From positions 46,271 through 70,270 of the forward strand of contig JANQIX010000110.1 in the NCBI GenBank assembly GCA_028281925.1: DNA of 24,000 nucleotides, read 5' to 3'. Positions within the stretch are counted from its first letter, which is position 1. Each line of letters begins with the position of its first letter. The notes under the pieces were generated by a model that did no database searches, was not told the DNA's origin, and saw only the letters and a list, made by a program, of their open reading frames with translations. The DNA comes from Alphaproteobacteria bacterium (lineage in GTDB: Bacteria; Pseudomonadota; Alphaproteobacteria; DSM-16000; Inquilinaceae). Made by a program: the position numbers and the translations under genes. Shown piece by piece: positions 3,773-23,117 of the stretch.

Positions 3773-4405
3773 CTACTGGCTGGCCCAGATGATGCGCGCG
3801 ATCCAGTCGATATCCGCGCGTCGCAGAGAACGGTCCTCGAAGGCGGGATTGAGAGACTTCAGATCGACCAAATTGGCGGTCATGCGCGCCAGTTCCTTTG
3901 CCATCACCTCGCCGCCGCGCGTCTTCACCACGACGCGATCGCCGCGCCGGATATCGGCCGCCGGCGACACGATGATGCGATCGCCGTCCCGGAACACCGG
4001 CTGCATGCTGTCGCCGCTGATCTCAAGGGCATAGGCGTGGGGATCGGAGAGATCGGGAAACTCCACCTCGTCCCACCCGCCCCCGGCCGGAAAACCGGCG
4101 TCGTCGAAGTAACCCTCCGATCCTGCCTGTGCATAGCCGATGACCGGCAGCCGCTGCGGACCAATCCTTCGCGGCGCATCGTCCAGCAACGTTATGAATT
4201 GGTCGATCGGCGTCGATGTTGCGTCCAGGATCTTCGCAAGGCTCTCGGTCGACGGCCACCGCGTGCGGCCTTCCGCCGTCTGCCGCTTCGACGGGTTGAA
4301 GGTCGTCGGGTCAAGCCCGGCCCGGCGGGCCAGCCCCGACGGAGACAGGCCTTGCGACCGAGCCAATCGGTCGATCGCGCGCCAGATATTTGCGTGTCTG
4401 AACAT
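3773..4405 (-). CDS. LexA/phage-repressor-like transcriptional regulator (N-terminal HTH, C-terminal S24 peptidase domain)
   Basis: 210 aa. The N-terminus, IWRAIDRLARSQGLSPSGLARRAGLDPTTF, looks like an HTH. The C-terminus has the S24 Ser motif EISGDSMQPVFRDGDRIIV and a downstream Lys (VVVKTRGGEVMAKEL). Confidence 0.8.
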   Translation of the reverse strand: MFRHANIWRAIDRLARSQGLSPSGLARRAGLDPTTFNPSKRQTAEGRTRWPSTESLAKILDATSTPIDQFITLLDDAPRRIGPQRLPVIGYAQAGSEGYFDDAGFPAGGGWDEVEFPDLSDPHAYALEISGDSMQPVFRDGDRIIVSPAADIRRGDRVVVKTRGGEVMAKELARMTANLVDLKSLNPAFEDRSLRRADIDWIARIIWASQ

Positions 4406-4470
4406 GGGAACATCGTCTCATACATAAGGCCGCGGCGTCCCTGCCAAAATGCGGCCGCCAAGTCCCGCGA

Positions 4471-5436: not shown

Positions 5437-5517
5437 CGGCCCTGGTTGCTCCGGCGTTTCGGATGGGATGGTCAGCGAACCTGCGGCCGCGTGCTTAGCG
5501 AGCGGCTCAGGGAGTCG

Positions 5518-6672: not shown

Positions 6673-6744
6673 CTCGCCATGATCGATGGAAGCGACAGCT
6701 GGGCCGGTCGTCATTGAGTCTATGTCGGCGAGAAGGAGGGAAGG

Positions 6745-7623
6745 ATGCAGTCCTTCAGCGACGATAGCGCCCCACCGGAGCAAACGCTAGAGCGACCCGG
6801 GGGTATTGCGCTTGCCTACCATCGCGTGCAAGCGGACAACGCCGCGTCCGGTCCGGGGGTGGTGTTCCTGACGGGCTACCTGTCGGACATGAGCGGATCC
6901 AAAGCCCTGCACCTGGAAGGGCATTGCCGGGACCGCGGCCAGGCCTTCGTGCGCTTCGACTATCGCGGCCACGGCCGTTCGGGCGGCCGCTTTGAAGACG
7001 GCACGATCGGGGCCTGGCGCGACGACGCGATCGCCGTTCTAGACGCGCTTACGGAAGGCCCGCAGATCCTGGTGGGGTCGTCCATGGGCGGCTGGATCGC
7101 CGTGCTGGCGGCTCTGGCGCGGCCCGACCGGGTGGCCGGGCTGATTACGGTCGCAGCGGCGGTCGACATGACGGCCGACATGATCTGGCCACAGCTCGAT
7201 GGTCGCGATCGGGCGACGCTGCGCCGCGATGGCCGTCTGGAGCGCCCCTCGCCCTATGGCGACGCCCCGTTCGTCGTCACCTGGGCGCTGATGGAGGAGG
7301 CGGAGCGCCATGTGTTGCTGCGCGCGCCCATCGAGATCGCCTGCTCGGCCCGGCTGCTGCACGGCATGCGCGACCCGGACGTACCTTGGCGCCAGAGTGT
7401 GCGGCTGATGGAACGCCTCGCCGCGGAGGATGTGCGGCTGCTGCTGATCAAAGATGGCGGCCACCGGCTTTCGGACCCGGAACACTTGGCCTTGCTGACC
7501 GGAGCGGTGGACGAACTGAGCGCGATCGCAACGCCCCAGAGCGCGTCAATGGAGCAGCCTTCGCCGGCGGCGGCGGCGGAACAGGAGCAGGATGAGAAGG
7601 CCGGGCACGGCGAAGACAACTGA
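6745..7623 (+). CDS. Alpha/beta-fold hydrolase
   Basis: ATG at 6745 preceded by AAGGAGG (6733-6739). Carries VVFLTGYLSDMSG, RFDYRGHGRSGG and the nucleophile elbow GSSMGGWIA, with a late GGHRLSDP (catalytic His region). The last ~26 codons overlap the convergent membrane-protein ORF. Confidence 0.8.
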   Translation: MQSFSDDSAPPEQTLERPGGIALAYHRVQADNAASGPGVVFLTGYLSDMSGSKALHLEGHCRDRGQAFVRFDYRGHGRSGGRFEDGTIGAWRDDAIAVLDALTEGPQILVGSSMGGWIAVLAALARPDRVAGLITVAAAVDMTADMIWPQLDGRDRATLRRDGRLERPSPYGDAPFVVTWALMEEAERHVLLRAPIEIACSARLLHGMRDPDVPWRQSVRLMERLAAEDVRLLLIKDGGHRLSDPEHLALLTGAVDELSAIATPQSASMEQPSPAAAAEQEQDEKAGHGEDN

Positions 7624-8043: not shown

Positions 8044-8134
8044 GGAGGGGTGGCCGAGCGGTTGAAGGCGCACGCCTGGAAAGTGTGTATACGTTAATCG
8101 CGTATCGTGGGTTCGAATCCCATCCCCTCCGCCA
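8044..8134 (+). tRNA. tRNA-Ser (anticodon GGA), class II with long variable arm, CCA encoded
   Basis: Acceptor stem GGAGGGG/CCCCTCC, discriminator G and encoded CCA (8132-8134). Anticodon stem CACGC/GTGTG with loop CTGGAAA, giving anticodon GGA. Long variable arm ATACG-TTAATCG-CGTAT. T arm GTGGG-TTCGAAT-CCCAT. Confidence 0.93.
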
Positions 8135-8712: not shown

Positions 8713-10113
8713 ATGCGCCGTCTGATCCTTCCCGCTCTGCTCTCATCGGCAGTTGCAATACCGCTTCCGAACACAGCGTGGGCGACGAGTGCGGACGAGA
8801 TCAGACGCCTCGAACAGCAGTTGCTGGAGCAGCGCGAGTTGCTCGAAGCCCAAAGGGCAGTTATTGAGGCCCAACAGGAGCAGCTTGATAGCCAGTTGCG
8901 CCAGCTGCAAGACCTGCAGACCAGCCTCTCAGCTGAGCCTCTGTCGGACGACGAGCTCGGCGAGGCTCGCGGCGGAGTGGGCCAGATGGTCTCGGCTCCG
9001 CTCATCTTGAGTTTTCCGTCGCTGGATGGTCAGAGTTTCCAGCCGTCGACGATCACGGCCAGCGTCTTCCCGGCTGCGTTCCCGGAGACCGTGACGGCCG
9101 ACCAGCTGCTGAGCCAGCAGACACCAGGGCAAGCACCGACGACGGAACCAGGCGGCCAAGGCACACCTCCTGGGGACGTCGACTCGGAAGACACCCCGCC
9201 AAGCGTGGAGCTGTTCCCCGAACGCGGCGGCGCACTTCTGCCACAGGGAACTTTAGTGTTTGAGCCTTCTGTTGAATACAACCTTTCGAATGTTAACCGA
9301 GTCGAGGTCGCGGGCTTCAGTGTCCTGCCTGCGATTCTTGTCGGTGAGTTCGCGGTGGAGTCGGTGGAGCGCGAAAACATTACCCCCGCCGTCTCTCTGC
9401 GCTACGGCATCACTGACCGTCTGGATGCCCAGGTTCGTATCCCCTACGTGTTTCGCAGCGAAGACTCCAGCCGACGACCAATTGGCGTCGGCGCTGATGA
9501 GGCCGAGCAGTTCAACACCACCGGCAACGGGCTCGGCGATATTGAGTTCGCGACCAACTATCAGATCAATCGAGGATTGGACGATTGGCCCTTCTTCATT
9601 GCCAATCTTCGCGTGCGCGTGCCAACCGGGCGGGACCCGTTCGAGATTGAGCGGGACGAAGACGGAAATGAATTGGAGCTCGCAACCGGCACAGGGTTTT
9701 TTGGTATACAGCCGAGCTTCACGGTGCTCTATCCGAATGATCCGGCCGTGTTATTCGCGAACCTCGGTTACACCTGGAACTTGGAGCGGGATGTCGGCGA
9801 CGAGTTCGGAGTCATCGATCCCGGCGATATTGTCAACCTCAGCGGTGGCGTCGGCATCGGGCTGAACGAACGCACATCCATTACCCTTGGCTATGATCAC
9901 CAGGTCGTGGGACGCACGAGCCAGGATGGCCAGATCGTCGATGGATCGCGGGTCCTCAACATCGGGCGGCTTCTGTTCGGCGCCTCGTTTCGCGTTTCTG
10001 ACAGTGTCGGCGTCAATCTGACGGTCGCCCCCGGCGTGACTGAAGACGCGCCCGACCTGACCGCGACCTTGCGCGTGCCGATCACCTTCCAAGATCTTTT
10101 CGGAAGCGATTAG
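8713..10113 (+). CDS. Outer-membrane beta-barrel protein with an N-terminal coiled coil (FapF-like architecture)
   Basis: 466 aa. Signal peptide MRRLILPALLSSAVAIPLPNTAWA|TS. Heptad-like coiled coil at about aa 27-72 (EIRRLEQQLLEQRELLEAQRAVIEAQQEQLDSQLRQLQDLQ). LSDDELGEARGG at aa 77-88. A P/T/Q/G-rich linker runs to about aa 175, followed by ~290 aa of alternating-polarity beta-strand sequence (e.g. VSLRYGITDRLDAQVRIPYVF, GLGDIEFATNYQI, FFIANLRVRVPTG, SITLGYDHQV, LTATLRVPITF). Confidence 0.8.
   Translation: MRRLILPALLSSAVAIPLPNTAWATSADEIRRLEQQLLEQRELLEAQRAVIEAQQEQLDSQLRQLQDLQTSLSAEPLSDDELGEARGGVGQMVSAPLILSFPSLDGQSFQPSTITASVFPAAFPETVTADQLLSQQTPGQAPTTEPGGQGTPPGDVDSEDTPPSVELFPERGGALLPQGTLVFEPSVEYNLSNVNRVEVAGFSVLPAILVGEFAVESVERENITPAVSLRYGITDRLDAQVRIPYVFRSEDSSRRPIGVGADEAEQFNTTGNGLGDIEFATNYQINRGLDDWPFFIANLRVRVPTGRDPFEIERDEDGNELELATGTGFFGIQPSFTVLYPNDPAVLFANLGYTWNLERDVGDEFGVIDPGDIVNLSGGVGIGLNERTSITLGYDHQVVGRTSQDGQIVDGSRVLNIGRLLFGASFRVSDSVGVNLTVAPGVTEDAPDLTATLRVPITFQDLFGSD
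8941..8976 (+). other. Double-glycine (C39-type) processing motif LSDDELGEARGG inside the barrel protein
   Basis: The codons CTG TCG GAC GAC GAG CTC GGC GAG GCT CGC GGC GGA were read directly. The block fits LSxxELxxIxGG at positions -12, -11, -8, -7, -2 and -1. Confidence 0.55.
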
Positions 10114-10401: not shown

Positions 10402-10926
10402 TCAGCGGTCCCTGACTCTGGGCAGGGACAGAACCTCAGTGGTGTCGGCTGTCGTCGATGCGGATCGCGCGGGCCTCTCCGCCAAGACGACTCGGTGATT
10501 ACCATCGCGCCAGTGGTCATCGAAGCCACTCGCCGGGGACATTGCCTCGAGTGCCGTGATCGGCGCGCCGAGTGGCAACACGGCATGCTCCGGGATCACC
10601 TCTCTGCCGGAGGCTGTCGCCACCGCCACTCCCTGATATCCGGCCGCCGCGCCTGACCCGGCAGCGGTTGCAATGACGGCATCGTCCTCATTTTCGATGC
10701 AGATATCACCCCAAGTCACCGCCCGCCACATCGCGCAGTCTTCATCGGCGACGGCGGAGAGCGCGTGGTCCATGATCATCTTGTCTGTGGCGACCAGCAC
10801 GGCCCCATCGATCGCATAGCCGGCAACAATCATGGGCAATGGCAGGGCACAGGCTGTGAGGGCCGCCGCCCCGAAGACAGCGGTGGCGGCAGGCAGATAG
10901 GGTCGTCTCTTCACTTGGGCCTCCAT
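10402..10926 (-). CDS. Hypothetical lipoprotein (last gene of the repeat-protein operon)
   Basis: Part of ORF 10402..11004; the start is taken at ATG 10926 (MEAQVKRRPYLPAATAVFGAAALTAC|ALPLP). A lipobox-like L-T-A-C follows a hydrophobic h-region. No family recognised. Same strand as the 182-aa gene, 67 bp downstream of it. Confidence 0.55.
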   Translation of the reverse strand: MEAQVKRRPYLPAATAVFGAAALTACALPLPMIVAGYAIDGAVLVATDKMIMDHALSAVADEDCAMWRAVTWGDICIENEDDAVIATAAGSGAAAGYQGVAVATASGREVIPEHAVLPLGAPITALEAMSPASGFDDHWRDGNHRVVLAERPARSASTTADTTEVLSLPRVRDR

Positions 10927-10993: not shown

Positions 10994-11542
10994 TCACAGG
11001 CCAAGTAAGCCGGCTTCGATCAGTGCGTTGGCGAGGTTGTTTGCTTGGATGCTCGACATGTCGAGATCGAGCGTCAACTCGATGCCGGTGTTCTGCTGTA
11101 TGATGATGTTGTCGAGATTGTTTTGGATAACGGAGAACAAGCCGGACCCGGCGATATCGCCAAGCATGTTGCTGTCGGGGGTGCCCCCCTGCAGGCTGAC
11201 GATGATGCTGCTGTTGGTTTGCTCGATTGCGGTGGTCACCTGACTGCCGAGGACATTGTTCACCTCCGGATCCCCGACCAGCACCCCATTCTCCAGAACC
11301 GCCTGGAAAGTGAAGCTGCTGAGCTCGCTGCCGTCCGCGCCGGCAACCAACCCGGTCATGTCGATCCCGAAGCTCACGAAACCGGCGCTGGTCAGGAAGC
11401 CACCGCGCAGATCCGCCAGCTCTTCGTTCGAGAGCCGCCGCTGCGACCACAAATCGTCTTCGGCCATCGCCGGAGCCAGCTCTGCCAGCAACGGCGTTGC
11501 CATGACCCAGAGCGCTAACGCCAAAGTGCTTTTGCCACGCAT
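10994..11542 (-). CDS. Secreted accessory protein with a GG-leader motif and degenerate IQNN-type repeats
   Basis: ORF 10994..11551 starts on a GTG. The ATG at 11542 has GGGAGG 10 nt upstream. Signal peptide MRGKSTLALALWVMATPLLAELAPAMA|ED, then LSNEELADLRGG. The C-terminal half has AIEQTNSSIIVSLQGG and FSVIQNNLDNIIIQQNT (nt 11087-11137). Confidence 0.7.
   Translation of the reverse strand: MRGKSTLALALWVMATPLLAELAPAMAEDDLWSQRRLSNEELADLRGGFLTSAGFVSFGIDMTGLVAGADGSELSSFTFQAVLENGVLVGDPEVNNVLGSQVTTAIEQTNSSIIVSLQGGTPDSNMLGDIAGSGLFSVIQNNLDNIIIQQNTGIELTLDLDMSSIQANNLANALIEAGLLGL
11399..11434 (-). other. Double-glycine processing motif LSNEELADLRGG
   Basis: The reverse complement reads CTC TCG AAC GAA GAG CTG GCG GAT CTG CGC GGT GGC. 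This fits the LSxxELxxIxGG consensus, including Leu at -4. Confidence 0.55.
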
Positions 11543-11560
11543 GGCTTCCACGCCTCCCGG

Positions 11561-12283
11561 TTAGAATGTGAATTCGTTCAATCCCGGCATCAGCAGCGTT
11601 ATGTCCGACAGGTTCTGTACGGTCAGCGCCGAGCCCAGCGGGGCCAGAGCGCGAATGCGCCAATCTGCTGCCACGTTGAACCGCTGCTGCCCGCTCTCCA
11701 TTGCATTCGTCACGACGAAGAGGATGCCGTTCCACATTGCCTCAAACTGATCTCTTGGGATGATCTTCATGCCGAAGGCCGGATCACCCACCAGGACCTC
11801 GTTTTCGGTCACGCCCTTGATCACCACAAAGTGCAAGTAGCCGTTCAGGTTTATCAGCGTGACCCCGGGGATGCCAACTTCGACCAACTGATCCAGCGAC
11901 GCCTCGAACCCATCGGACTCGAGCCCGATCGTTGCAAGGTAGGTCTTCATGTCGAGCATGGAAAAGCCGCGGGTCCGGATGGCTTCCTGATCGCCGTTCT
12001 CCCACATGTGCTCGAACACGGCCTGCTCGGTCGTCGGAACGCCGTAATGGTAGGTGAGCAAGGTTGCGACCGAGGCCGAGCCGCAGCTGAAGTCGTACTG
12101 CTGCGGCACGACGGCGTTGTACCGCGCCTCTCGGATACTGGTGACCGTCGTGTTGAACGAGAAACCGCCGACGATCGTGGTGACGTCGGCGGCGGTCGCC
12201 TTGTGCGGTCCGGCCGCCGCGGCAACGAGGGCGACGGCGGCCAGCCTGCACAGCCCCAGCCTTGTCTTTGACAGTGTGATCAT
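11561..12283 (-). CDS. Stand-alone C39-family cysteine peptidase with a Sec signal peptide (predicted periplasmic, FapD-like)
   Basis: 240 aa. Signal peptide MITLSKTRLGLCRLAAVALVAAAAGPHKATA|AD. C39 signature VVPQQYDFSCGSASVATLLTYHYG has Gln 6 residues before Cys67 (codon 12083-12085). LHFVVIKGVTENEVLVGDPAFG contains His151 and Asp167, 16 residues apart. Its ATG overlaps the TGA of the upstream 115-aa gene (ATGA). Confidence 0.88.
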   Translation of the reverse strand: MITLSKTRLGLCRLAAVALVAAAAGPHKATAADVTTIVGGFSFNTTVTSIREARYNAVVPQQYDFSCGSASVATLLTYHYGVPTTEQAVFEHMWENGDQEAIRTRGFSMLDMKTYLATIGLESDGFEASLDQLVEVGIPGVTLINLNGYLHFVVIKGVTENEVLVGDPAFGMKIIPRDQFEAMWNGILFVVTNAMESGQQRFNVAADWRIRALAPLGSALTVQNLSDITLLMPGLNEFTF

Positions 12284-12627
12284 TGCACGATAACGCTCAG
12301 CATTGTGTTCACCTGGATGATCGAGTTGTTGCCGTTGTTCTGGATCACCGTGAACGCGCCGGCCGCATTCTGAAACGCATCTGCGGCGATGGAATTGCTG
12401 GCATTGAACGGGCCCGTGATGTTTGAGGTCACGTTGCTGATCTCCGCCGACAGTGCGGCAAAGTCGGCATCGAGACCTTGCAGCGAGCCGCCGCGTGCCT
12501 CCGCCAGTTCTTCCGTAGAGATCGGGTTCCCGCCAAGAAGCCGGCTGACCTCTTCTTGGGCCTTAGCCGTATGTCCCGTGCCTGCGATGGCTAACGCCGC
12601 GACACAGAGAATTATACCCTTGGTCAT
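12280..12627 (-). CDS. Small secreted protein: signal peptide + GG-leader motif + a single QNNG-family repeat (candidate nucleator/cap)
   Basis: Part of ORF 12280..12648. The ATG at 12627 is preferred, with GGGAGG 5 nt upstream (complement of 12633-12638). Signal peptide MTKGIILCVAALAIAGTGHTAKA|QE, then ISTEELAEARGG. The mature ~68 aa end in DAFQNAAGAFTVIQNNGNNSIIQVNTMLSVIVQ. Confidence 0.75.
   Translation of the reverse strand: MTKGIILCVAALAIAGTGHTAKAQEEVSRLLGGNPISTEELAEARGGSLQGLDADFAALSAEISNVTSNITGPFNASNSIAADAFQNAAGAFTVIQNNGNNSIIQVNTMLSVIVQ
12487..12522 (-). other. Double-glycine processing motif ISTEELAEARGG
   Basis: Codons were checked one by one on the reverse strand (ATC TCT ACG GAA GAA CTG GCG GAG GCA CGC GGC GGC). 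Confidence 0.55.
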
Positions 12628-12668
12628 CAAAGCCTCCCGAAACAGCATACTTAACCGAAGAGCGTGAA

Positions 12669-12696
12669 CCGGGGGTCGCTGTCACTCGACCCCCGG
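12669..12696 (-). terminator. GC-rich 10-bp-stem hairpin between the giant gene and the downstream accessory genes (possible attenuator or mRNA-stabilising stem-loop)
   Basis: CCGGGGGTCG (12669-12678), loop CTGTCACT, CGACCCCCGG (12687-12696). It lies 37 nt downstream of the giant gene's TAA (12733-12735). On the minus-strand transcript no clean U-tract follows (TTCACGCTCTTCGG), so it is not a canonical intrinsic terminator. Confidence 0.35.
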
Positions 12697-12732
12697 CCCC
12701 GTTTTGGCTCCCTACAGAGCCTCCCGTTACTC

Positions 12733-15700
12733 TTACGGCCGCGTGAAGCTTGCCGTAACCGAGATGGACGAGCTGATCACGTTGCCCGAACCGTTGTTCT
12801 GGGTGACCGACACAACCCCAGCCGCTCCGTTGAACGAGTCGGTGATCGTGTTGTTGAGCCCAGTGGAGCCGGCCGGGATGACCGTATCGACCGTGACGTT
12901 GGAGGTCGCACCGGCCAGTGTCGCGGTCGACACCGCAGTGCCAAACCCGACGTCACCGCTCGGCGCACCGCCAGAGCCCACCTGCTCCGCACCGACGCTG
13001 ACCGCCGTTCCCAGCACATTGGCATCGCCGTTGTTCTGGGTCACGGTCGCCACGCCCTGGAAGCTCTCGAACGAGTCGCTGATCGTGTTGTCGGGGCCGA
13101 CAGCACCCAGCTGCTGATAGATCTCGATCGGAGCCCCAGGCGCCCCAACGGTACCGGTCACGTCAGACGAAACCGTGCTGGAACCTGCCACGTCCGCGTT
13201 GTCACCCAGCGTGGCCGATACGCCGATGGCCGTTGTCGCCACATTGCCGTTCCCGTTGTTCTGGAACACGGCGAAGATCCCCTCGGCACCATCGAACGAG
13301 GCGTCGATGAAGTTCGACCGATTGCCGAAGAACTGCCGGTCACCCGGCGCACCGAACACCAGACCGCTCACATCGCCGCCGGCCTCGACCACCGAGGCGA
13401 CCGTGTCGATATCGTCTGCATCGACCAGGGCCACCACGCCAATCGAAGTGCCGATGACGTTGCCGGTACCGTTGTTCTGCTGAACCGAGACCACACCGCT
13501 CGCGCCGTCGAAGGAGTCGGCGACGATGTCGTTGTCTCGGAGGTTGCTCTCCAAGATCGCGCCATCGTCAACCTCGCTGACCGTGCCGAAGGCGCGGATC
13601 AACGATTGCGTGGAGCTCTCTGCGGCAGGAGTGGCGCCAGCCTGGCCCGTGCGAACGTCGGCCGACACGGCGATGGCGGAGAACATGGCGTTACCGTCGC
13701 CATTGTTCTGCTGGACCGTCAGCGTGCCGGTATACGAGTCGAACGAGTCAGTGATCGTATTCAACCGCGGGCTTTCCGTATCGACGAAGGTGATGATGTC
13801 TTCGATGTCCACGGACATGTCGACCGACTGGGTGACGTTGTTCGCGGTCGCACCGGGCCCGCTGCCGAACACCGCGGTACCGGAGAAGATGAAGTTTCCG
13901 CCACCGTTGTTCTGCTGAGCCGTGACGATGCCCGAAGCGTCGTCGAACGCCCCACCGACGAGGAGGTTGGTACGAGCCCCGTCCGGCGTGGCGGCGGACC
14001 CGAACGTGAGCCCCGACAGCGTCGGCGGGACACCGTCCAGGCTGATCGTCTGATCAACCGTCAACGTCTCTTCGTCGTCCGCATCGCCGACCAACGCCGT
14101 TGCCGCCGCCAGAACGTTGCCGTCACCATTGTTCTGCTGAATGGTGGCGACACCTGAGTACCCGACGAATGCCGAGGTCAGGTCGTTCAGACGCAGGCTG
14201 TTGTCGGAGAGCACCGTGAGATCGCTGACCTGGTTCGTACCGGACGCGGCATCGATCGTCTGGTCGACGTTCTCCGGGCCGTTACCCACATAGGCCAGCA
14301 CCGCCACGTCTTCGATCATCACGTTGGCGTCGCCGTTGTTCTGCTGAACATCGACCACACCCGCGAAGCCGTCAAACGCGCCCGGTTCGACCCTATTGGT
14401 GCGCACGTCATCGGCTGCCGACACGAGCGCGAACGAGACCACTGTTTCAACGAATGTGATCTCTTGGGCCGCGTCACTGAGGAACCCGGTCGATCCCACA
14501 ATGGCGTTGTTGGCCGTCATCACGTTCACATCGCCGTTGTTCTGCTGAACCGTGGCAATGCCGCCGGTGCCCGGGCCCGTGAAGGCGCCGCCACCGATGG
14601 TGTTCGTCCGCGTTCCGCCAGCGCTGATCAGGTTCAGATCGAAGGTCAGGTTCCCGGCGACCGTTCCGGCCGACCCGATGGTCTGGGTCACCGTGCCAGT
14701 CGGGCCGAGCAGCAGGCCATCAGCCGACCCCAGCACCGCATTGTTGATCTGCATGGCGTTGAGGTTGCCGTTGTTCTGCTGAACATTGGCGATCCCCGCC
14801 GAGCCGGAGAAGGCCGTGCCGCCCACCAGGTTGGTGCGTGTCTCACCGCTAATCAGGATGTCGATATCGGCATCCAGCGTCGCGATGATATCCGCATCCG
14901 ACGTGATCGTCTGATCGACCGGCAGCCCCGCCGCCTGCAGCAGGACACCACCAGCCAAGCCGACCACGGCGCTGTTCGCCCCAATCGCGTTCAGGTTGCC
15001 GTTGTTCTGCTGAACCGTGGCAATCCCGTTCGAGCCGGAGAAGGCACCGCCGTCGATCGTGTTGGTCGCAACCTCTGTTCCCAGCGTCAGGAACTCGAGA
15101 TCCACTGTCGCATCCAACAGGTGCAGCGTGTCGGACGACACGACCTGATCGACTTCACCGACCGCACTGAGGGCGAACCCGGCCGCGCCGAGCACCGCGG
15201 TGTTGGCGGTGATCGAGTTCAGGTCACCATTGTTCTGCTGAACCGTGGCGACGCCGTCCGAGCCCGAGAACGCGCTGCCAGTGATCGTGTTGGTATCCGT
15301 ATCACCGAGCAGCAAGGAGATATCGATCCCCGCCTCGAACACGTGGGCAGCGCTGGAGCTCACGCTCTGATCCACGCTTCCCGCGCCGATGGCGGCAAGA
15401 CCTGACACACCGACGATCGCATTGTTGATCGTCATGGCATTGATGTTGCCGTTGTTCTGCTGAGCATTCACGACACCGGCGGACCCTGCGAAGGCCATGC
15501 TGTCGATCAGGTTCTCCCGATCGCCGCCGGACAAGATGTTGATGTCGAACGCCGCGTTGAGCGCCAGCAAGTCGGCCGAGGTGATGCTCTGGACCACCGT
15601 TCCCGTCGCGTTGAACGAAAGCCCAACTGCACCGACAACCGCGTTGTTGATGGCGAGTGCATTGATGTCGCCGTTGTTCTGCTGAACGCTGGTCAGACCC

Positions 15701-18700
15701 GCTGCACCTTCAAACGCTTCGTCGCTGATCAGGTTGTCGCGGCTGCTGTCCGCGATGCCCAGATCGATGGCCAAGTCGAGTGCCAGTGTGGCTTCCGACG
15801 TGACCGTCTGCGTGATGCTATCGGTCAGCCTGAAGTCGAAGCCACCGACCCCGATGATCGCATTGTTGATACCGAGACCGTTCACGTTGCCGTTGTTCTG
15901 CTGAACGCTGGTCACGCCTTCGACACCCTCGAACGCGTCGTCGGTGATCGTGTTGGCACGCGCACCAAGGACATTGAGGTCGGCATCGAGAGCCAGGTTG
16001 AAGATGATGTCGGTGCTGGAGCCGGCCACCTGCGTGACGTCGCCGAACGGCCCCAGTTGGGCTCCGCCGGCCACGCCGACGACCGCACTGTTGATGTCCA
16101 GCGCGTTCACGTCGCCGTTGTTCTGCTGCACGCTGGTCATGCCGGAGATGCCGTTGAACGACCCCGCGTCGATCGTATTCGTGCGGAAGCCGAGGATGTC
16201 GATCGCACCGTTGGCGGTGAGGTCGACTTCCGACATGGCCGTCTGGGTCACATCCGCGCCGATCGCCAGCGCCCCGTCGGTCAGGCCGACCACGGCGTTG
16301 TTGATGCCGAGCGAATTGACGTTGCCATTGTTCTGCTGCGCGGCGATCAGGCCCGACGTCGCGAGGAACGCCGCATCCGTGATCGAATTCGTCCGTGCGC
16401 CGCCCAGGACGTCAGCATCTACCACGAAGCTGCCATCGATGCTGACGGTCGACGTGGCCTCTTGATCCACGAAACCGACTGCACTGAGCGAGAACCCGGC
16501 CACACCCACGACGGCGTTGTTGATGCCCATCGCATTGATGTCGCCGTTATTCTGCTGGGCGCTGACGATGCCGCTCGCGAAGGCGAACGCCCCCGCATCG
16601 ATATCGTTGTCCCGCACGCCGCCGAAGAACAGGGTGACATCTGCGGCCGTGTTGTCCAGCAGGCTGACATCAGACGTGGCGTCCTGGAACACGAAGCCGG
16701 TCGCGCTGAGCGCGATGCCTGTGGTCCCGGAAACCGCATTGTTGATGCTGAGCGCATTCACATCGCCGTTGTTCTGTTGAACGCTCAGCAGACCGGCTGC
16801 AGCGACGTTGGCGATGTCGCTGATGTCGTTGGTGCGCGCACCACCACCGAAGATGCCCAGATCGATGGCCGTGTTGCTGTCCAGCTCTACGAGCGAGCTG
16901 GCCGACTGGACGATAGCGAAGGTCGCGCTCGCCGACAGCCCAACCGTTCCCATCACTGCGTTGTTGATGTTCAGCGCATTGATGTTGCCGTTGTTCTGCT
17001 GGGCATTGATGACGCCAGCCGCCGTCGCGAAGGCAGCGCCATCGATCGTGTTGTCCCGGTCACCGCCGCCCAGGGCGCTGACGTCAAGCGCGCCACCCAG
17101 GGTCAGGTCCGTGTCGGAACTCGCCGTCTGGAACGCCACGCCAGTCAGGCTGGCAGAGGCGCCGACACCGCCGATCACCGCATTGTTGGCGCTGATGGCA
17201 TTCAGGTCGCCATTGTTCTGCTGAACATTGACAACTCCAGCGAAGCCAGCGAAGGCGCCGTCCGTCAGTGTGTTCGTGCGGTCACCGCCAAACACGCTGC
17301 CGTCCACGGCCAGCGTGAAGACAGTGTCAACTGACGAGGTGGCGTCCTGATCCACAAGGCCATTGGCCGTGAGGGTCAGGCCGTTGGCGCCGACGACCGC
17401 ATTGTTAACGTCCATCGAGTTCAGGTTGCCGTTGTTCTGCTGAACGCTGGCGATCCCGCTGCCGCCTGCGAAGGCAGCGTCGTCGATGGTGTTGGTCCGC
17501 GTACCCTGGATGTCGATCGCAGCCGCGATGGCGTTGACGACAGTCGAGGATGCATCTTGCGTGATGAAGCCGAGCTGAGCCAGAGCGCCGGCCGACACGC
17601 CAACCACCGCATTGTTGGTGCTGATGGCATTCAGGTCGCCGTTGTTCTGCTGAACGTTGACGATGCCGTTTGCGCCGGTGAAGGCAAGGTCGGTGAGGGT
17701 ATTCGTCCGATCACCGCCCAGGATCTCCAGATCCACCGCCACGTTGAAGGCGAGCCCGCTGTCTGAGTCGGCAGTCTGGATCACCGGACCACTGGCGCTG
17801 GCGCCGAAGCCCGCAACGCCAACGACGGCACTGTTCACGCCCATGACGTTCACGTTGCCGTTGTTCTGCTGGACAGTGGTGATCCCGTTGGCCACCAGGA
17901 AGGCGCCAGCGTTGACCACGTTCGCGCGATCACCACCCCCGATCTGCACATCCAATGCTGCATCGAACAGCAAGAAGGCATCCGATTCGGCCACCTGCGT
18001 AACGATGCCCGTTCCCGTCAGGCCGAGGCCCGCTGTTCCGAACACCGCTGTGTTGGCAGAGATCGAGTTCAGATCGCCGTTGTTCTGCTGAACATTGACG
18101 ATGCCGTCCGACGCGATCGAGGCGATGCCCGTGATCGTGTTCAGGCGATCGCCACCACCCAGCAGCCCGACATCGATTGCCGTGTCGCCCAGGAGCGTTG
18201 CCGTGGAGGTCGCCGACTGATCCAACGTCCCGGAGAGGCTTACGCCGGCGCCGGACGCACCGACGATGGCGTTGTTGATGCCCATGGCGTTCAGGTCGCC
18301 GTTGTTCTGCTGAACGTTGACGACACCATCCACCAGCGCAAAGGCAGCACCACCGACTACGTTGCTGCGTGCGCTGCCGCCGAGGAAGTCGAAGTCGACG
18401 GTCGTGCTGAGAGCGATATCCTGATCCGAGCCGGCGGTCTGCGTCGTCGCCCCAGCAGCACTGATCGAGATACCCACGGCACCCATAACCGCGTTATTGA
18501 TGCCGAGTGCGTTCAGGTCGCCGTTGTTCTGCTGAACGTTGGCGATACCGTCGAAGACCGAGAACGCTGTACCGGTGATCACATTGTCTCGGCCACCGCC
18601 GCCTAGGAGATCCAGGTTCAGCGTCGCACCCAGGGCCAGATCGACATCGGAAGTCGCGCTCTGGTCGACGGTCGAATTCAGGCCCAGGTTGATCCCGATC

Positions 18701-21700
18701 GCGCCGACCACGGCGGAGTTGGCGTCGATCGAGTTCAGATCACCGTTGTTCTGCTGCACGCTTGCGAGGCCGGCTGCTCCGGAGAAGGCCGATCCGCTGA
18801 TGGAATTGTCGCGGGCGCCGAACCCAAGAGCATCGACATCGATCCCCGCATTCAAAGCGGCATCGACGGTCGAGCTAGCGGACTGATCGATAGCGCCGAG
18901 CACAGCCACGTTGATACCGCCGCTGGAGCCAACGACGGCATTGTTGATGTCCATGCTGTTGAGGCTGCCGTTGTTCTGCTGGATAGCCGCGATGCCGTTG
19001 GCACCGGCAAACGCCGCACCGTCGATCGTGTTCTCCCGATCGCCGCCCAGATCGATAGCCAAGTTGATCAGGAAGTCGACGTCGGAAGCCGCCACCTGGC
19101 TTATGCCACCGATCGCACCCGTGAGGCTTGGCGCCGTGGCCCCGAGCACCGCGTTGTTGATCTGCAGCGCATTCAGGTCGCCGTTGTTCTGCTGGATGTT
19201 CGCGATACCTGCGGCGCCGGTGAAGGCACCCGTGATCGTGTTGCTGCGGTCACTCAGCAGGTCAAGCGTCGCGTTGACGGTCAAGAGAGCGGTCGAAGTG
19301 GCCGACTGCACGACCGGCACACCTGACAGCACGATGGCCGGGCCGATCGAGCCCACCACGCCGTTGTTGGTCTCAAGCGTGTTCAGCGTGCCGTTGTTCT
19401 GCTCGATATTGGCGATGCCCGTGGCACCAGCGAACCCACCGGGAATCGTGTTGGTGCGCGAACCGAACAGATCGGCCGTGGCGCCGAAGGCCACGATCGC
19501 CGGGCTGTTCACATCCTGCGTGACGCTGGTCGCGACACCAAGCGCACCGACCACGGCGTTGTTGATCTGCAGCGAGTTGAGGTCACCATTGTTCTGCTGA
19601 ACGTTGATGATCCCGCTCGCGCCATCAAACGCACCGGCGGCGATCGTGTTCGTCCGCGTCGTGGCAATGCCGATCTCCAGATTGCCAGCCAGCGTCGTCA
19701 GCTCAATCGTCGAACTCGGGGTCTGCGTGATCGCACCGGTCGCACCGGTCACGCCCACCACCGCGCTGTTGATGTCCATCGCATTCAGGCTGCCATTGTT
19801 CTGTTGAACGCTGGCCACGCCCGTGAAGCCGTCGAAGACGGGATCGGCGATGAAGTTGTCGCGGGTACCCGCGATGTCGACGGCCAAGTTGCCCAGGATC
19901 GACACGGTCGTGCCGACGTCCTGATCGATGGCACCGGTGGAGCTAGCCACACCGACGATCGCAGTGCCGATTGAGACAATGTTGGCGTCACCGTTGTTCT
20001 GCTGGACGTTCGCCACGCCCGCGGCCCCATTGAAGCCGTCTTCCAGCAGGTTGGACCGGACGTCGCTCGGGTCGACCGCGACCGAGCTCAGGATATCCGC
20101 CGTCTTGACGATGTCCTGATCGATGGCGCCAGTCGCGCCGACGATGCCGACAATGGCATTGCCGATGACGATGGCATTACCGCTGCCATTGTTCTGCTGA
20201 ACGTTGAGAACGCCGGTCGCACCGTTGAAGGACCCACCGGCCAGGCCGATGTTGTTGTCCAGCGTGGAGGAACCGACGCGGATCACCTCAACATCGTCGA
20301 CTTCGGCATCCAGCGTGACGGCCTGCGTGATGCTGCCGGAACCGCCGAGGCCCGCGCCGAGAGCGGCCGCATCGCCGGCGATCGCGCTGGCGACCTGGAT
20401 GGCATTCGCATGGCCGTTGTTCTGCTGAACGGTGACCACGCCGGCGGCATCGGTGAACGCTTGGTCGATGTCGTTGCTGCGGTCGGCGCCGCTGCCCGAA
20501 ACATCGATGTCGACGATGAAGCCATCGAGCGTGGCGAAGGCATTCGTGGTCTGCGAGATCGCCCCGCCCACTGACGCCGTCGCACCGATGACCGCATTGG
20601 CCACGTCCATCGCGTTGGCGTGACCGTTGTTCTGCTGCACGGTCAGAACACCCGACGCGTCGCGGAACGACCGTTCGATCAGGTTGATTGCCGTCGGGAA
20701 GCCGATATCGTCAACATCGGTGCTGCCCAGAACGGTGGAGAAACTGCCAGCCGTCTGATCGATAGACCCGATCGTGCCGCCAGGTGACGCCAGCCCCAGA
20801 ACCGCATTGGCGTTGGAGATGGCATTGCCATCGCCGTTGTTCTGCTGGGCCGTAAGGACACCGCTGAAGCGGTCAGCGGAGTTGATGGTCAGGTTCCGAT
20901 AGTCGGTTGCATTGGAATCCGCGCTGGTCAGGAGGATCGTCGAAGCCGACGTCGCGTCCTGTGTGACCGCGCCGTCCACGCCGCCGGTGATACCCGCAAT
21001 GGCGTTGGCGATCCCCATCGCATTGCCATCGCCGTTATTCTGCTGGACAGCCGCGAGACCGACTGCGTCGTCGAACGCCCGGCGGATCACATTGTTTCGA
21101 TCCAGCGCAAACGCAAAGCTGCCGGGCTGCGTGTTGGTCGTGTTCAGGGCTATGGTGCCGCCGGTCAGGGCCGACTGCGTAACGGCGTCCGTGTCTTCCG
21201 GCGAACCCAGAAGGACGGCCGTCCCGCCGACGAGACCGGTAACTGCATTGGCAATGCCCATGGCGTTGCCGCTGCCGTTGTTCTGCTGAACCGCCATGAT
21301 GCCGGCGGTGGAATCGAAGGAGTCGCGGATCCTGTTCCGGCGATCGGTACCTTGATCAACCGTGTCAACGAGGACCGAAAGGCCGACGGTCGAAGCGGTG
21401 TTGGTGATGGCGCCGACATCCGCGATGGCTGCAACGATGCCGTGCGCTGCCGTTGCAACGCCCATCGCATTGATGTCGCCATTGTTCTGCTGCACATGGA
21501 TGATGCCGGCAGCGCCATTGTAGGAGCTGTCTTGGACGAAGTTCTGCCGCTCCCGCGTGGCGTCGGAGCCGTCGCCGATTGCGGTCGCACTGCCAAAGGC
21601 GACGATATCGGTGACCGCAGCCACGGTCTCGATGTCAGCGCCGTCGGGTGCCAGGTCGCCATTCACCGCGATGGCGCTACCGAGCACGTTCCCGTCGCCA

Positions 21701-21924
21701 TTGTTCTGCTGGCTGACCAGGACACCTTCCGCACCCAGCGTGAACGAATTGAGGATCGTGTTGAGCTCACCGCCCGATCCGCCCGCAGACTGATCATCCA
21801 CGACGACACCGGAGGCGGAAGACGCCGTGACAGAGGCACTCGCCAAACTCTGCGCCTGTGCAGCGGCGCCGAAGCCGATCGTCAGAGCCAGGAGGGACAC
21901 GCCCCCTAAAAGAGTATTCCTCAT
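12733..21924 (-). CDS. Giant (3,063 aa) Sec-exported repeat protein with 42 QNNG-core repeats; candidate fibre/adhesin or functional-amyloid-like subunit
   Basis: One uninterrupted 9.2-kb ORF. ATG at 21922-21924 with GGGAGAGG upstream. Signal peptide [24 protein letters not shown]|QS. I counted 42 occurrences of the core x(V/I/A)(Q/T/E/F)QNNGxxN, each inside a ~65-77-aa unit such as (D/T)R(T/D)N(T/x)Ixxx(A)Fxg(A/x)xG(I/V)xxVQQNNG(D/N)xNAxxINNAVVGxxG...(T/D)Q...D. The composition is dominated by A/G/N/V/S/T/D/I/L/Q, and I saw no Cys or Trp on reading. The protein ends right after a repeat (...GVVSVTQNNGSGNVISSSISVTASFTRP). Confidence 0.9.
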   Translation of the reverse strand: MRNTLLGGVSLLALTIGFGAAAQAQSLASASVTASSASGVVVDDQSAGGSGGELNTILNSFTLGAEGVLVSQQNNGDGNVLGSAIAVNGDLAPDGADIETVAAVTDIVAFGSATAIGDGSDATRERQNFVQDSSYNGAAGIIHVQQNNGDINAMGVATAAHGIVAAIADVGAITNTASTVGLSVLVDTVDQGTDRRNRIRDSFDSTAGIMAVQQNNGSGNAMGIANAVTGLVGGTAVLLGSPEDTDAVTQSALTGGTIALNTTNTQPGSFAFALDRNNVIRRAFDDAVGLAAVQQNNGDGNAMGIANAIAGITGGVDGAVTQDATSASTILLTSADSNATDYRNLTINSADRFSGVLTAQQNNGDGNAISNANAVLGLASPGGTIGSIDQTAGSFSTVLGSTDVDDIGFPTAINLIERSFRDASGVLTVQQNNGHANAMDVANAVIGATASVGGAISQTTNAFATLDGFIVDIDVSGSGADRSNDIDQAFTDAAGVVTVQQNNGHANAIQVASAIAGDAAALGAGLGGSGSITQAVTLDAEVDDVEVIRVGSSTLDNNIGLAGGSFNGATGVLNVQQNNGSGNAIVIGNAIVGIVGATGAIDQDIVKTADILSSVAVDPSDVRSNLLEDGFNGAAGVANVQQNNGDANIVSIGTAIVGVASSTGAIDQDVGTTVSILGNLAVDIAGTRDNFIADPVFDGFTGVASVQQNNGSLNAMDINSAVVGVTGATGAITQTPSSTIELTTLAGNLEIGIATTRTNTIAAGAFDGASGIINVQQNNGDLNSLQINNAVVGALGVATSVTQDVNSPAIVAFGATADLFGSRTNTIPGGFAGATGIANIEQNNGTLNTLETNNGVVGSIGPAIVLSGVPVVQSATSTALLTVNATLDLLSDRSNTITGAFTGAAGIANIQQNNGDLNALQINNAVLGATAPSLTGAIGGISQVAASDVDFLINLAIDLGGDRENTIDGAAFAGANGIAAIQQNNGSLNSMDINNAVVGSSGGINVAVLGAIDQSASSTVDAALNAGIDVDALGFGARDNSISGSAFSGAAGLASVQQNNGDLNSIDANSAVVGAIGINLGLNSTVDQSATSDVDLALGATLNLDLLGGGGRDNVITGTAFSVFDGIANVQQNNGDLNALGINNAVMGAVGISISAAGATTQTAGSDQDIALSTTVDFDFLGGSARSNVVGGAAFALVDGVVNVQQNNGDLNAMGINNAIVGASGAGVSLSGTLDQSATSTATLLGDTAIDVGLLGGGDRLNTITGIASIASDGIVNVQQNNGDLNSISANTAVFGTAGLGLTGTGIVTQVAESDAFLLFDAALDVQIGGGDRANVVNAGAFLVANGITTVQQNNGNVNVMGVNSAVVGVAGFGASASGPVIQTADSDSGLAFNVAVDLEILGGDRTNTLTDLAFTGANGIVNVQQNNGDLNAISTNNAVVGVSAGALAQLGFITQDASSTVVNAIAAAIDIQGTRTNTIDDAAFAGGSGIASVQQNNGNLNSMDVNNAVVGANGLTLTANGLVDQDATSSVDTVFTLAVDGSVFGGDRTNTLTDGAFAGFAGVVNVQQNNGDLNAISANNAVIGGVGASASLTGVAFQTASSDTDLTLGGALDVSALGGGDRDNTIDGAAFATAAGVINAQQNNGNINALNINNAVMGTVGLSASATFAIVQSASSLVELDSNTAIDLGIFGGGARTNDISDIANVAAAGLLSVQQNNGDVNALSINNAVSGTTGIALSATGFVFQDATSDVSLLDNTAADVTLFFGGVRDNDIDAGAFAFASGIVSAQQNNGDINAMGINNAVVGVAGFSLSAVGFVDQEATSTVSIDGSFVVDADVLGGARTNSITDAAFLATSGLIAAQQNNGNVNSLGINNAVVGLTDGALAIGADVTQTAMSEVDLTANGAIDILGFRTNTIDAGSFNGISGMTSVQQNNGDVNALDINSAVVGVAGGAQLGPFGDVTQVAGSSTDIIFNLALDADLNVLGARANTITDDAFEGVEGVTSVQQNNGNVNGLGINNAIIGVGGFDFRLTDSITQTVTSEATLALDLAIDLGIADSSRDNLISDEAFEGAAGLTSVQQNNGDINALAINNAVVGAVGLSFNATGTVVQSITSADLLALNAAFDINILSGGDRENLIDSMAFAGSAGVVNAQQNNGNINAMTINNAIVGVSGLAAIGAGSVDQSVSSSAAHVFEAGIDISLLLGDTDTNTITGSAFSGSDGVATVQQNNGDLNSITANTAVLGAAGFALSAVGEVDQVVSSDTLHLLDATVDLEFLTLGTEVATNTIDGGAFSGSNGIATVQQNNGNLNAIGANSAVVGLAGGVLLQAAGLPVDQTITSDADIIATLDADIDILISGETRTNLVGGTAFSGSAGIANVQQNNGNLNAMQINNAVLGSADGLLLGPTGTVTQTIGSAGTVAGNLTFDLNLISAGGTRTNTIGGGAFTGPGTGGIATVQQNNGDVNVMTANNAIVGSTGFLSDAAQEITFVETVVSFALVSAADDVRTNRVEPGAFDGFAGVVDVQQNNGDANVMIEDVAVLAYVGNGPENVDQTIDAASGTNQVSDLTVLSDNSLRLNDLTSAFVGYSGVATIQQNNGDGNVLAAATALVGDADDEETLTVDQTISLDGVPPTLSGLTFGSAATPDGARTNLLVGGAFDDASGIVTAQQNNGGGNFIFSGTAVFGSGPGATANNVTQSVDMSVDIEDIITFVDTESPRLNTITDSFDSYTGTLTVQQNNGDGNAMFSAIAVSADVRTGQAGATPAAESSTQSLIRAFGTVSEVDDGAILESNLRDNDIVADSFDGASGVVSVQQNNGTGNVIGTSIGVVALVDADDIDTVASVVEAGGDVSGLVFGAPGDRQFFGNRSNFIDASFDGAEGIFAVFQNNGNGNVATTAIGVSATLGDNADVAGSSTVSSDVTGTVGAPGAPIEIYQQLGAVGPDNTISDSFESFQGVATVTQNNGDANVLGTAVSVGAEQVGSGGAPSGDVGFGTAVSTATLAGATSNVTVDTVIPAGSTGLNNTITDSFNGAAGVVSVTQNNGSGNVISSSISVTASFTRP
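12775..21715 (-). repeat. Array of 42 diverged tandem coding repeats, period about 195-240 bp
   Basis: On the + strand the 12-mer (G/A)TTGTTCTGCTG (the reverse complement of Q-Q-N-N codons) recurs at, for example, 13471, 13702, 13906, 14128, 14335, 14536, 14770, 15001 ... 21276, 21481 and ~21701. The flanking sequence is diverged, so these are imperfect repeats rather than recent identical copies. Confidence 0.9.
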
Positions 21925-22511: not shown

Positions 22512-23117
22512 TCAGCTTTGCGGAACCAGCAAGGCGACCAAGGTTGTCAGATCGGGCAACCCGGTTGCCTCGAGCTCGTTCTGCTCTTGAAATTCCGAAA
22601 TGGCGGCTTGCGTTCCCGGGCCGAACACGCCGTCAGCCTCGCCGTCATAGAGCTCAAGCTCGGCCAGTCTCTCTTGGGCGCGGCGCAACAGCTCAACGGG
22701 CAGGCTTACGCTCTCTTCTCCGGAAACGACGTCCACTCGCTCGGACTGTTCGGCCAGCGCCAATGGACGAAGCAGCGAAGCCGTGGCGGTCACGGCCTCG
22801 CCAAAGCGCGCCTGGGGCGTTCGATCGCAGATATTGGCGACTATGGCCGTCAGGGCGTCGATGTTGTGCACGGGGCTGATGTCGTAGACGCCCTCCGTCA
22901 GCAGGTTCACCGCCGAGAAGTGGCCATTAATCCAAGACCGGAACGCCAGCACCAAGGGATCGCTGTCCTCCAGCGCCTGCGTGAAGGTCTCGCAAGTCTC
23001 AAACCCCTCTCCCTTGATGACGTAGTTTCCGTCTGTGTCCGCGGCTTCGACGGTAGGTACAGAGATCGCCGCAGTGCCGAGGAGAGCGGCCAACAGAGCT
23101 GAGCCGTAGTGACGCAT
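22512..23117 (-). CDS. Secreted protein with a C-terminal peptidoglycan-binding (PG_binding_1-like) domain
   Basis: Part of ORF 22512..23441. The start is taken at ATG 23117 (MRHYGSALLAALLGTAAISVPTVEA|AD), preceded by a perfect AAGGAGG (complement of 23123-23129). The C-terminus, RAQERLAELELYDGEADGVFGPGTQAAISEFQEQNELEATGLPDLTTLVALL, matches the LxxLGxYxGxxDGxFGxxTxxAVxxFQ pattern. The N-domain is unassigned. Confidence 0.72.
   Translation of the reverse strand: MRHYGSALLAALLGTAAISVPTVEAADTDGNYVIKGEGFETCETFTQALEDSDPLVLAFRSWINGHFSAVNLLTEGVYDISPVHNIDALTAIVANICDRTPQARFGEAVTATASLLRPLALAEQSERVDVVSGEESVSLPVELLRRAQERLAELELYDGEADGVFGPGTQAAISEFQEQNELEATGLPDLTTLVALLVPQS

Follow-up and report, generated by a model that had tools for sequence, protein, structure and literature searches.

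The closest described systems to the locus analysed here are the Fap systems of Pseudomonas (fapABCDEF). By cryo-EM, each repeat of the FapC subunit forms one cross-beta layer of five short strands with Asn/Gln ladders (PMC12392863). Three repeats per protein are almost universal according to a survey of 2025. Dueholm et al. described in 2013 FapC proteins of Acidithiobacillus (4-8 repeats) and Vibrio (16 repeats), found together with FapB proteins of two repeats or one, and proposed repeat expansion as a means of self-nucleation (PMC3792158). The presence of Fap in some Alphaproteobacteria was noted in 2018. Here we analysed a stretch of 24,000 nucleotides, hereafter the window, from an Alphaproteobacteria bacterium of the Inquilinaceae (assembly GCA_028281925.1, contig JANQIX010000110.1, positions 46,271 to 70,270). 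It encodes a 3,063-aa protein with 42 repeats built around the motif QNNG. We conclude that the locus is probably a divergent Fap-type biogenesis cluster, with the giant protein as its FapC-equivalent major fibre subunit. This conclusion is based on the anatomy of the repeat, the homology of the repeat and of the neighbouring genes to Fap, the conservation of the cluster, purifying selection, and the presence and specificity of double-glycine leaders.

The locus shares with Pseudomonas Fap (FapC 9u4u and 9nqd) Sec-exported Asn/Gln-rich repeats with the core G(I/V)xxV(N/Q)QxxGxLN, a periplasmic C39 protease and a FapF of the trimeric type with a coiled coil (5O65). A weaker likeness is that of the FapE-like protein, which has a processed-looking N-terminus and one repeat-like C-terminal segment. 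Five strands per repeat layer are also predicted for the QNNG unit. Pseudomonas Fap has 3 repeats of about 37 aa separated by long variable linkers, whereas the giant protein has 42 contiguous units of 74 aa that are predicted to be structured. Furthermore, our locus has neither FapA nor a three-repeat FapB, its fapF lies on the opposite strand and it carries an extra peptidoglycan-binding gene. The core is NVAAG or NQxxG in Pseudomonas and QQNNG here, and as a consequence the curated FapC and FapB hidden Markov models (HMMs) miss the giant protein.

Compared by description, and with their membership of the QNNG type unconfirmed, the Vibrio and Acidithiobacillus variants resemble our locus in combining a repeat-rich FapC with a reduced FapB, the loss of fapA and a separated fapF (PMC3792158). 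They differ in copy number, where our 42 repeats exceed the published maximum by a factor of 2.6 and the next-largest protein in the database by a factor of two, and the host here is an alphaproteobacterium. In copy number the closest analogue is the many-repeat CsgA of curli, also a long beta-solenoid amyloid subunit of imperfect Q/N/G repeats that is secreted unfolded and nucleated at the surface; homologues of up to 52-62 repeats are attributed to Sleutel et al. as cited in PMC12822426. Its strand-turn-strand repeat of ~22 aa is however unrelated, and export depends on the CsgG/E/F machinery.

A giant protein of 42 QNNG units

The open reading frame (ORF) of the giant protein is uninterrupted and translates into 3,063 residues (Table 1). 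QNNG occurs 42 times at a spacing of 65-81 aa, compared with about 0.2 occurrences predicted from composition by our own arithmetic. Cys and Trp are absent, Lys is found once, and the mature protein is ~298 kDa with a pI of ~4. We judged the Sec signal of the translated sequence by eye. When the protein was split at its repeat cores, the resulting segments aligned to a unit of 74 positions with the consensus G-x-V-x-Q-x-A-x-S...D...G-x-R-x-N-x-I-x-x-x-A-F-x-G-A-x-G-x-x-x-V-Q-Q-N-N-G-D-x-N-A-x-x-x-N-N-A-V-x-G. Seven columns of this unit are invariant (N37, G49, Q55, N56, N57, G58 and N61), and the core is flanked by (D/T)RxNxIxxxAFxGxxG(I/V)xxV upstream and xxINNAVVG downstream. Mean pairwise identity is 46% among units 10-34, 37% among units 1-9 and 32% among units 35-42. 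Only 9 residues separate the last repeat core from the C-terminus, which reads …SVTASFTRP.

Most of this anatomy had been read from the sequence in a preliminary description. Its count of 42 units holds, with a spacing slightly wider than the 65-77 aa given there, and the unit alignment recovers both of its flank motifs. Likewise, our data agree with a Cys-free protein, a Sec signal (again by eye), terminal repeats more divergent than the central ones, and a giant and a 115-aa protein that both end directly after a repeat. Neither Pfam nor NCBIfam, the latter including the AmldFbnFapC and FblAmlydFapB models, matched the giant protein at E<=1, and Pfam had zero matches to a 300-aa fragment of it. 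This fits the earlier statement that RTX repeats, a two-partner secretion (TPS) domain and a C-terminal barrel are lacking.

Long repeats on a metagenome-type contig, here one of 89 kb, could also result from a mis-assembled array or belong to a decaying pseudogene. Tandem Repeats Finder detected no DNA-level repeats in the gene, and the units are at most 60% identical to one another, so that the array appears old and imperfect rather than inflated by the assembler. A second, independent assembly (contig JANQQD010000254.1, 97% identical) encodes a giant protein of identical length, 3,063 aa, and the two copies differ by 164 synonymous and 43 non-synonymous changes over 2,618 codons (dN/dS 0.087). 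The giant gene is genuine, selection on it in the minus-strand frame is strongly purifying, and we regard the probability of an artefact as negligible.

Antisense ORFs of up to 497 aa lie over the giant gene (12664-14157, 16057-17334 and 14464-15405, all on the plus strand). They are best explained by the high GC content and periodic codon structure, and a dN/dS of 0.087 in the minus-strand frame speaks against their being genes.

Relationship of the repeat to Fap repeats

A profile of the repeat searched against 1.84 billion (1.84e9) representative proteins matched only 186. Strong matches come from QNNG-repeat proteins, with two or more QNNG motifs in at least 88 of the 142 retrieved sequences, and the next-largest database members after the giant protein have 20-21 units. 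The weak tail (E 1e-6 to 1e-9) consists of proteins of 220-260 aa with three matched stretches. Nine of the 10 weak-tail proteins tested are recognised by the NCBIfam FapB/FapC models (1e-10 to 1e-18). The repeat of these proteins, R-x-(D/N)-x-I-x-D-S-F-x-G-x-x-G-(I/V)-x-x-V-N-Q-x-x-G-x-L-N, and the R-x-N-T-I-x-x-x-A-F-x-G-x-x-G-I-x-x-V-Q-Q-N-N-G-D-L-N of the QNNG proteins are visibly one motif.

Consistent with this likeness, hhalign aligned the QNNG unit with the profile of the weak-tail three-repeat proteins at 96.1% probability (E 3.1e-9) over the region RxNxI..F.G..G(I/V)..V(Q/N)Q..G.LN. In turn, each of the three repeats of Pseudomonas FapC (PDB 9nqd) aligns in register to the weak-tail profile, at a non-significant E of 9.8; the repeat profile searched directly against PDB sequences gave no meaningful match. 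When a 300-aa fragment of the giant protein was used as the query, only 12 relatives of ~35% identity were found. Based on these profile comparisons, the QNNG unit can be described as a divergent form of the Fap imperfect repeat, with a link to FapC that is real but transitive.

The preliminary description had likened the repeat to both curlin and FapC. The profile homology supports the likeness to FapC. The curlin repeat is unrelated, and a curli identity was rejected, with no Pfam Curlin_rpt (PF07012) match and no Csg-like neighbour (CsgE/F/G). The repeat-HMM search that it had proposed led to a Fap-type family with a recognisable secretion route, which by its own criterion lowers the novelty and leaves the structural and functional reading in place. 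A further Pfam family, PF27129.1, is precomputed on 2 QNNG homologues and was missing from the Pfam copy used; it may already cover the QNNG repeat.

Genes of the cluster

Although no secretion route had been noticed in the preliminary description, a FapF-like pore and a FapD-like protease are recognisable beside the giant gene (Table 1). The 466-aa pore protein matches FapF of PDB 5O65 over the barrel (aa 157-459, 2.7e-26), NCBIfam FapF (2e-40) and Pfam Phenol_MetA_deg, and its N-terminus is, by eye, heptad-rich as expected of the FapF coiled coil. The 240-aa peptidase matches Pfam Peptidase_C39 (9e-19) and NCBIfam FapD (7e-47). Aligned to the double glycine motif protease of PDB 6mpz (5e-7), its Cys67, His151 and Asp167 coincide with those of that enzyme. 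Like these Fap models, NCBIfam models of Acinetobacter Fil match the protease (FilB, 7e-33) and the pore (FilC, 3.5e-10), but with lower bits (FapD 159 vs FilB 114; FapF 139 vs FilC 40), and no Fil subunit model matches the repeat proteins. Judged from these matches, Fil would be another branch of the theme of C39-plus-FapF-like export.

The 122-aa protein and the 185-aa FapE-like protein are paralogous. The first comprises a signal peptide, the leader-like ISTEELAEARGG and one C-terminal repeat (AFTVIQNNGNNSIIQ...), and its last residues before the stop are …AFTVIQNNGNNSIIQVNTMLSVIVQ; it is a candidate for a single-repeat, FapB-like nucleator or adaptor. In the second, a processed-looking N-terminus is combined with a repeat-like C-terminus, a domain logic that fits FapE as described (PMC5557850). 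Its N-terminal match to FapE recurs in 2 of 4 orthologues from other loci, and as a search query it retrieved only two close relatives.

Table 1. Positions of the Fap-like features within the 24,000-nt window
Feature	Position	Strand	Description
Giant FapC-like subunit	12733..21924	-	3,063 aa; 42 imperfect QNNG units of 65-81 aa
Predicted Sec signal peptide of giant protein	21850..21924	-	aa 1-25, ending ...AAAQA before Q; by eye from translation
Small secreted protein with single C-terminal repeat	12280..12648	-	122 aa from first ATG, 115 aa from second Met
Leader motif ISTEELAEARGG of 122-aa protein	12487..12522	-	aa 43-54, behind signal peptide
FapD-like periplasmic C39 double-glycine peptidase	11561..12283	-	240 aa; signal peptide by eye
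FapE-like protein	10994..11551	-	185 aa; signal peptide, LSNEELADLRGG, one degenerate repeat LFSVIQNNLDNIIIQQ, C-terminal tail
Leader motif LSNEELADLRGG of FapE-like protein	11399..11434	-	aa 40-51, behind signal peptide
FapF-like outer-membrane export pore	8713..10113	+	466 aa; signal peptide, N-terminal coiled coil, linker with LSDDELGEARGG, beta-barrel
Leader motif LSDDELGEARGG of FapF-like protein	8941..8976	+	aa 77-88, between coiled coil and barrel
Secreted protein with C-terminal PG_binding_1	22512..23117	-	~201 aa; Pfam 2.5e-14; just upstream of giant gene
Lipoprotein-like ORF (…AALTAC…) at cluster end	10402..10926	-	no family match; membership doubtful

The PG_binding_1 protein possibly serves in anchoring or local wall remodelling. 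To our knowledge, no PG_binding_1 gene belongs to the canonical fap operon. The lipoprotein-like ORF has 81% amino acid identity to its counterpart in the sister genome, compared with 98% for its neighbours, and has none in other loci; either it evolves fast or the ORF is no genuine gene.

The left flank of the cluster (351-7623) is housekeeping, with genes for a lysyl-tRNA synthetase (LysRS), an FkbM methyltransferase, a class IV aminotransferase and an S24 (LexA-like) peptidase, as well as a heptosyltransferase, a GT4 glycosyltransferase and an alpha/beta hydrolase. A tRNA-Ser(GGA) gene (8044-8134, plus strand) lies exactly where the GC content drops from ~0.67 in the housekeeping flank to 0.55-0.63 in the Fap-like cluster. 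The sister contig shares 90% identity over the housekeeping flank to the left of tRNA-Ser and over the FapF-like gene, and 95-97% from 10356 onward. The Fap-like cluster may be an island integrated at tRNA-Ser. The sister contig itself (JANQQD010000254.1, covering our loci L011 and L019) is labelled 'Anaerolineae bacterium'. The LysRS of the window is ~70% identical to those of Rhodospirillaceae, Azospirillaceae and Stellaceae and the flank encodes a lipopolysaccharide heptosyltransferase; both point to an alphaproteobacterial host, which makes the 'Anaerolineae' label doubtful and probably a binning error.

Conservation across genomes

Related loci were found with a degenerate DNA pattern of two QQNNG cores one repeat apart, which identified 27 stretches among 185,579 species genomes. 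These are mostly from alphaproteobacterial metagenome-assembled genomes (Limimonas, Sneathiellales, Azospirillaceae, Kiloniellales, Rhodospirillales and Paracoccaceae), and the cultured Thermithiobacillus tepidarius DSM 3134 is also among them. The QNNG genes of the related loci adjoin orthologues of the FapD-like, FapF-like, single-repeat and peptidoglycan-binding proteins. Besides the 99%-identical copy in the near-identical relative L011, FapD-like orthologues are 44-62% identical in 12 other loci, and FapF-like orthologues are 40-50% identical in 8 loci. Those of the PG_binding_1 protein, at 30-45% identity, stand beside QNNG genes in L001, L006, L007, L013, L016, L021 and L026, and those of the 122-aa protein in L002, L005, L007, L013, L015, L016, L022 and L026. 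For example, the gene order in T. tepidarius (L022, NZ_CP133759.1) is identical: subunit, small protein, FapD and FapE-like. This locus has a pair of QNNG-repeat proteins, of which one has four repeats in 328 aa, along with small single-repeat, FapD-, FapE- and FapF-like genes, and a sigma-54-type activator gene adjoins its fapF.

The C-terminal repeat of the family is unusually conserved (…VQQNNGNNNAIQSAISVxANF/Y). It is closer to the single repeat of the small protein than the internal repeats are. A shared templating or recognition element had been proposed in the preliminary description, and the resemblance fits a role at that end of the protein. Many family members end in …SV(T/V)ANF or …ANY, and the terminal aromatic residue recalls the C-terminal signals of outer-membrane proteins and the …KLAF of FapC.

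We also considered whether the giant protein is a conventional beta-helical adhesin, secreted by a type I or type V system and merely adjoining a Fap-like cluster. Its size and acidic, repeat-rich composition are like those of giant adhesins, and generic beta-helices appear in the lower ranks of the Foldseek search with its predicted structure (see below). However, Pfam and NCBIfam find no RTX, TPS, autotransporter-barrel or type I secretion system (T1SS) signal family in the protein or its neighbours, and RTX/T1SS and TPS/type V secretion system identities were rejected on these grounds. There is no ABC transporter or TpsB nearby, the repeat is Fap-homologous, and many unrelated genomes have QNNG proteins together with FapD- and FapF-like genes. 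An adhesin of this kind is thus highly improbable.

Double-glycine leaders beside the FapD-like protease

A canonical double-glycine leader reads L-S-x-x-E-L-x-x-I-x-G-G. The related pattern LSxxELxxxRGG has only three matches in six-frame ORFs of at least 80 codons in the window, where a rough estimate of our own gives ~0.15 by chance, and these fall in the 122-aa, FapE-like and FapF-like proteins (Table 1). In five other loci, small and FapE-like ORFs likewise carry the motif behind their signal peptide, and it is absent from the first 110 residues of 115 out of 115 larger family members. The motif in the FapF linker is specific to the genome of the window and a close relative; in the FapF-like linkers of L001, L003, L007, L015 and L018 it is not clearly present. 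Based on these sequences, the leaders in the two small proteins and the FapF linker suggest substrates of the FapD-like protease, and the pore itself may be among the proteins cut.

Rouse et al. showed that the catalytic Cys of FapD is needed for secretion (PMC5557850; PMC6173800), and mass spectrometry in the same work found that FapE alone loses its N-terminus of ~70 residues (PMC5557850). They pointed out GG motifs in both FapE and the linker of FapF, detected no C39 site of the canonical kind, and described the target of FapD as unclear (PMC5557850; PMC6173800). The leaders of our locus are, in contrast, explicit and canonical, and their confinement to the small, FapE-like and FapF-like proteins matches the N-terminal loss restricted to FapE (PMC5557850).

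Leaders of the LSxxELxxxxGG type could also place the locus elsewhere, in a bacteriocin-like or contact-dependent aggregate system where C39-matured leader peptides act as toxins or signals and the giant protein as a scaffold. A weak Lactococcin-family match on the 122-aa protein and the alignment of the protease to PCAT/AMS double-glycine proteases point the same way. Yet the protease has its own signal peptide and is without an ABC transporter domain, and the leader-bearing proteins have Sec signals as well, with Fap-type repeats at their C-terminal ends. An immunity gene is not apparent, and homology to FapD, FapE and FapF accounts for the same features. We consider a bacteriocin-like system very unlikely.

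Predicted structure and covariation

We folded units 15-20 with AlphaFold2 on an alignment of 13 rows, composed of non-overlapping six-unit windows and homologues. The best of the five models is all-beta (predicted local distance difference test, pLDDT, 84.9; predicted TM-score, pTM, 0.89), and in it every unit has five strands at the same positions. Covariation was analysed in 501 units from the QNNG family. Within the unit, the couplings 53-64, 43-52, 46-50 and Arg34-Asp58 fit beta-arches in the Fap-homologous half. Between adjacent units, 25 of the top 50 couplings fall on identical positions, and in a lag control such same-position coupling had roughly double the strength at lag 1 that it had at lags 2-4. 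About half of the signal thus persists at lags 2-4, and same-position covariation was rejected as clean evidence of stacking, one part of it being attributed to stacking and another to common descent of the repeats. We infer that one 74-aa unit would occupy one layer of 4.8 Å, and hence that each chain would make a rod of ~20 nm.

Such a rod need not polymerise. The giant protein could use the Fap route and act as a monomeric beta-solenoid of ~20 nm, a surface adhesin or spacer with its divergent terminal repeats as caps. In favour of this, the covalent linkage of 42 layers is enough to make a long stack, divergence is clearly higher in units 1-9 and 35-42, the C-terminal repeat of the family is specially conserved, and the cluster is without a three-repeat FapB nucleator. 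Nevertheless, every characterised relative (FapC and FapB) polymerises, and the terminal repeat appears to have its template in the single-repeat partner. In addition, Dueholm et al. read the expansion of repeats as self-nucleation and not as a loss of polymerisation (PMC3792158). A monomeric rod, the main alternative to a polymerising subunit, therefore seems unlikely, while deserving some weight.

A proposed Fap-type model for the locus

If the giant protein is the major subunit of a Fap-type fibre, the cluster could work as follows. All components would reach the periplasm via Sec, where the FapD-like protease would cut after LSxxELxxxRGG in the FapE-like and the small protein, and probably in the FapF linker, and so license secretion. 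The giant subunit, unfolded, Cys-free and very acidic, would thread through the trimeric FapF-like barrel. Once outside the cell, each ~74-aa unit would form a single cross-beta layer of five strands, kept together by Asn/Gln ladders (VQQNNGxxN and INNAVVG) and an Arg-Asp pair. With units stacked in register, one chain would be a ~20-nm solenoid of 42 rungs, extendable head-to-tail into fibres. The single-repeat protein, a mimic of the conserved C-terminal repeat, would template or anchor the giant subunit at the surface. The inferred elements of this scheme are passage through FapF, processing by FapD, the placing of a single unit in each layer, polymerisation, and a role in biofilm formation or adhesion. 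Only tentatively do we combine them into a joint proposal of a length-defined 'single-chain amyloid', whose C-terminal repeat would be templated by a one-repeat partner. In this proposal the locus would also reveal the long-sought substrates of FapD, and their leaders would serve as a periplasmic safety catch whose removal lets the pore open and assembly begin.

Several observations weigh against a Fap-type cluster. The case is built from sequence and predictions. The giant protein is not matched directly by the curated FapC/FapB models, and its connection to FapC is transitive, through intermediates that are themselves under the NCBIfam cut-offs. The strict expression of Dueholm et al., X15-G-X4-N-X3-G-X6-N-X7, has 1 match in the giant protein vs 42 units, since Gln replaces the first Asn and the last one is shifted a single position; relaxed to G-x4-[NQ]-x3-G-x2-N, the expression has 38 matches. 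The neighbours also fall short of the curated models: the FapD match is under its equivalog cut-off, the FapF match is under the 700-bit equivalog cut-off, and the FapE match is weak, covering the N-terminal region only at 1e-4, again under the equivalog cut-off. The fapF-like gene is on the opposite strand to the other cluster genes and convergent with them, and neither Pfam nor NCBIfam detects FapA among the neighbours in the window. Loss of fapA is, on the other hand, the commonest deviation among known fap operons, and its absence is therefore compatible with membership.

The structural evidence has similar counterpoints. The four remaining AlphaFold2 models of the six-unit construct reach a pLDDT of 65-71, and a three-unit construct with the identical strand pattern reaches 55. 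The top two PDB matches of the six-unit model in Foldseek, many-repeat CsgA (8c50, E 0.015, TM 0.08) and FapC (E 0.067), are non-significant, with TM below 0.3. Finally, the covariation at identical positions in part reflects the shared ancestry of the repeats.

Significance

The amyloid-like reading with Asn/Gln ladders that had been given in the preliminary description gains support from the repeat homology, the FapD/FapE/FapF context and the templating likeness. The novelty claimed with it is reduced, since multi-repeat FapC and single-repeat FapB have been known since 2013 (PMC3792158). Already known are the Fap system, its repeat-expanded variants, the loss of fapA and a separated fapF. 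What is new is the number of repeats, 42 compared with 3 as the usual number, at most 16 in the literature consulted and at most 21 in the database, and a QNNG form of the repeat that escapes the NCBIfam FapB/FapC models. Also new, according to the unit alignment and the structural model, is a 74-aa unit in which the 'linker' half is conserved and predicted to be structured, without long linkers. To this the sequences add the explicit canonical leaders and a peptidoglycan-binding gene that is conserved in QNNG clusters. A literature search of limited reach found no published description of the QNNG branch. The giant protein is an extreme version of a known system and not a new kind of fibre, namely a very divergent and by far the longest known relative of FapC.

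The near-universality of three repeats in the survey of 2025 may partly reflect the blindness of the HMMs to this form. The QNNG branch has ~90 database representatives with 2-21 repeats, in addition to the outlier with 42. Three leader-bearing proteins beside a double-glycine protease give a directly testable prediction of cleavage sites for FapD, whose substrate has been called undetermined since 2017, and experiments could start from the related cluster of the cultured T. tepidarius DSM 3134. The giant protein lends itself to asking how repeat number controls the nucleation, fragmentation resistance and stiffness of a functional amyloid, and is a possible template for engineered cross-beta materials.

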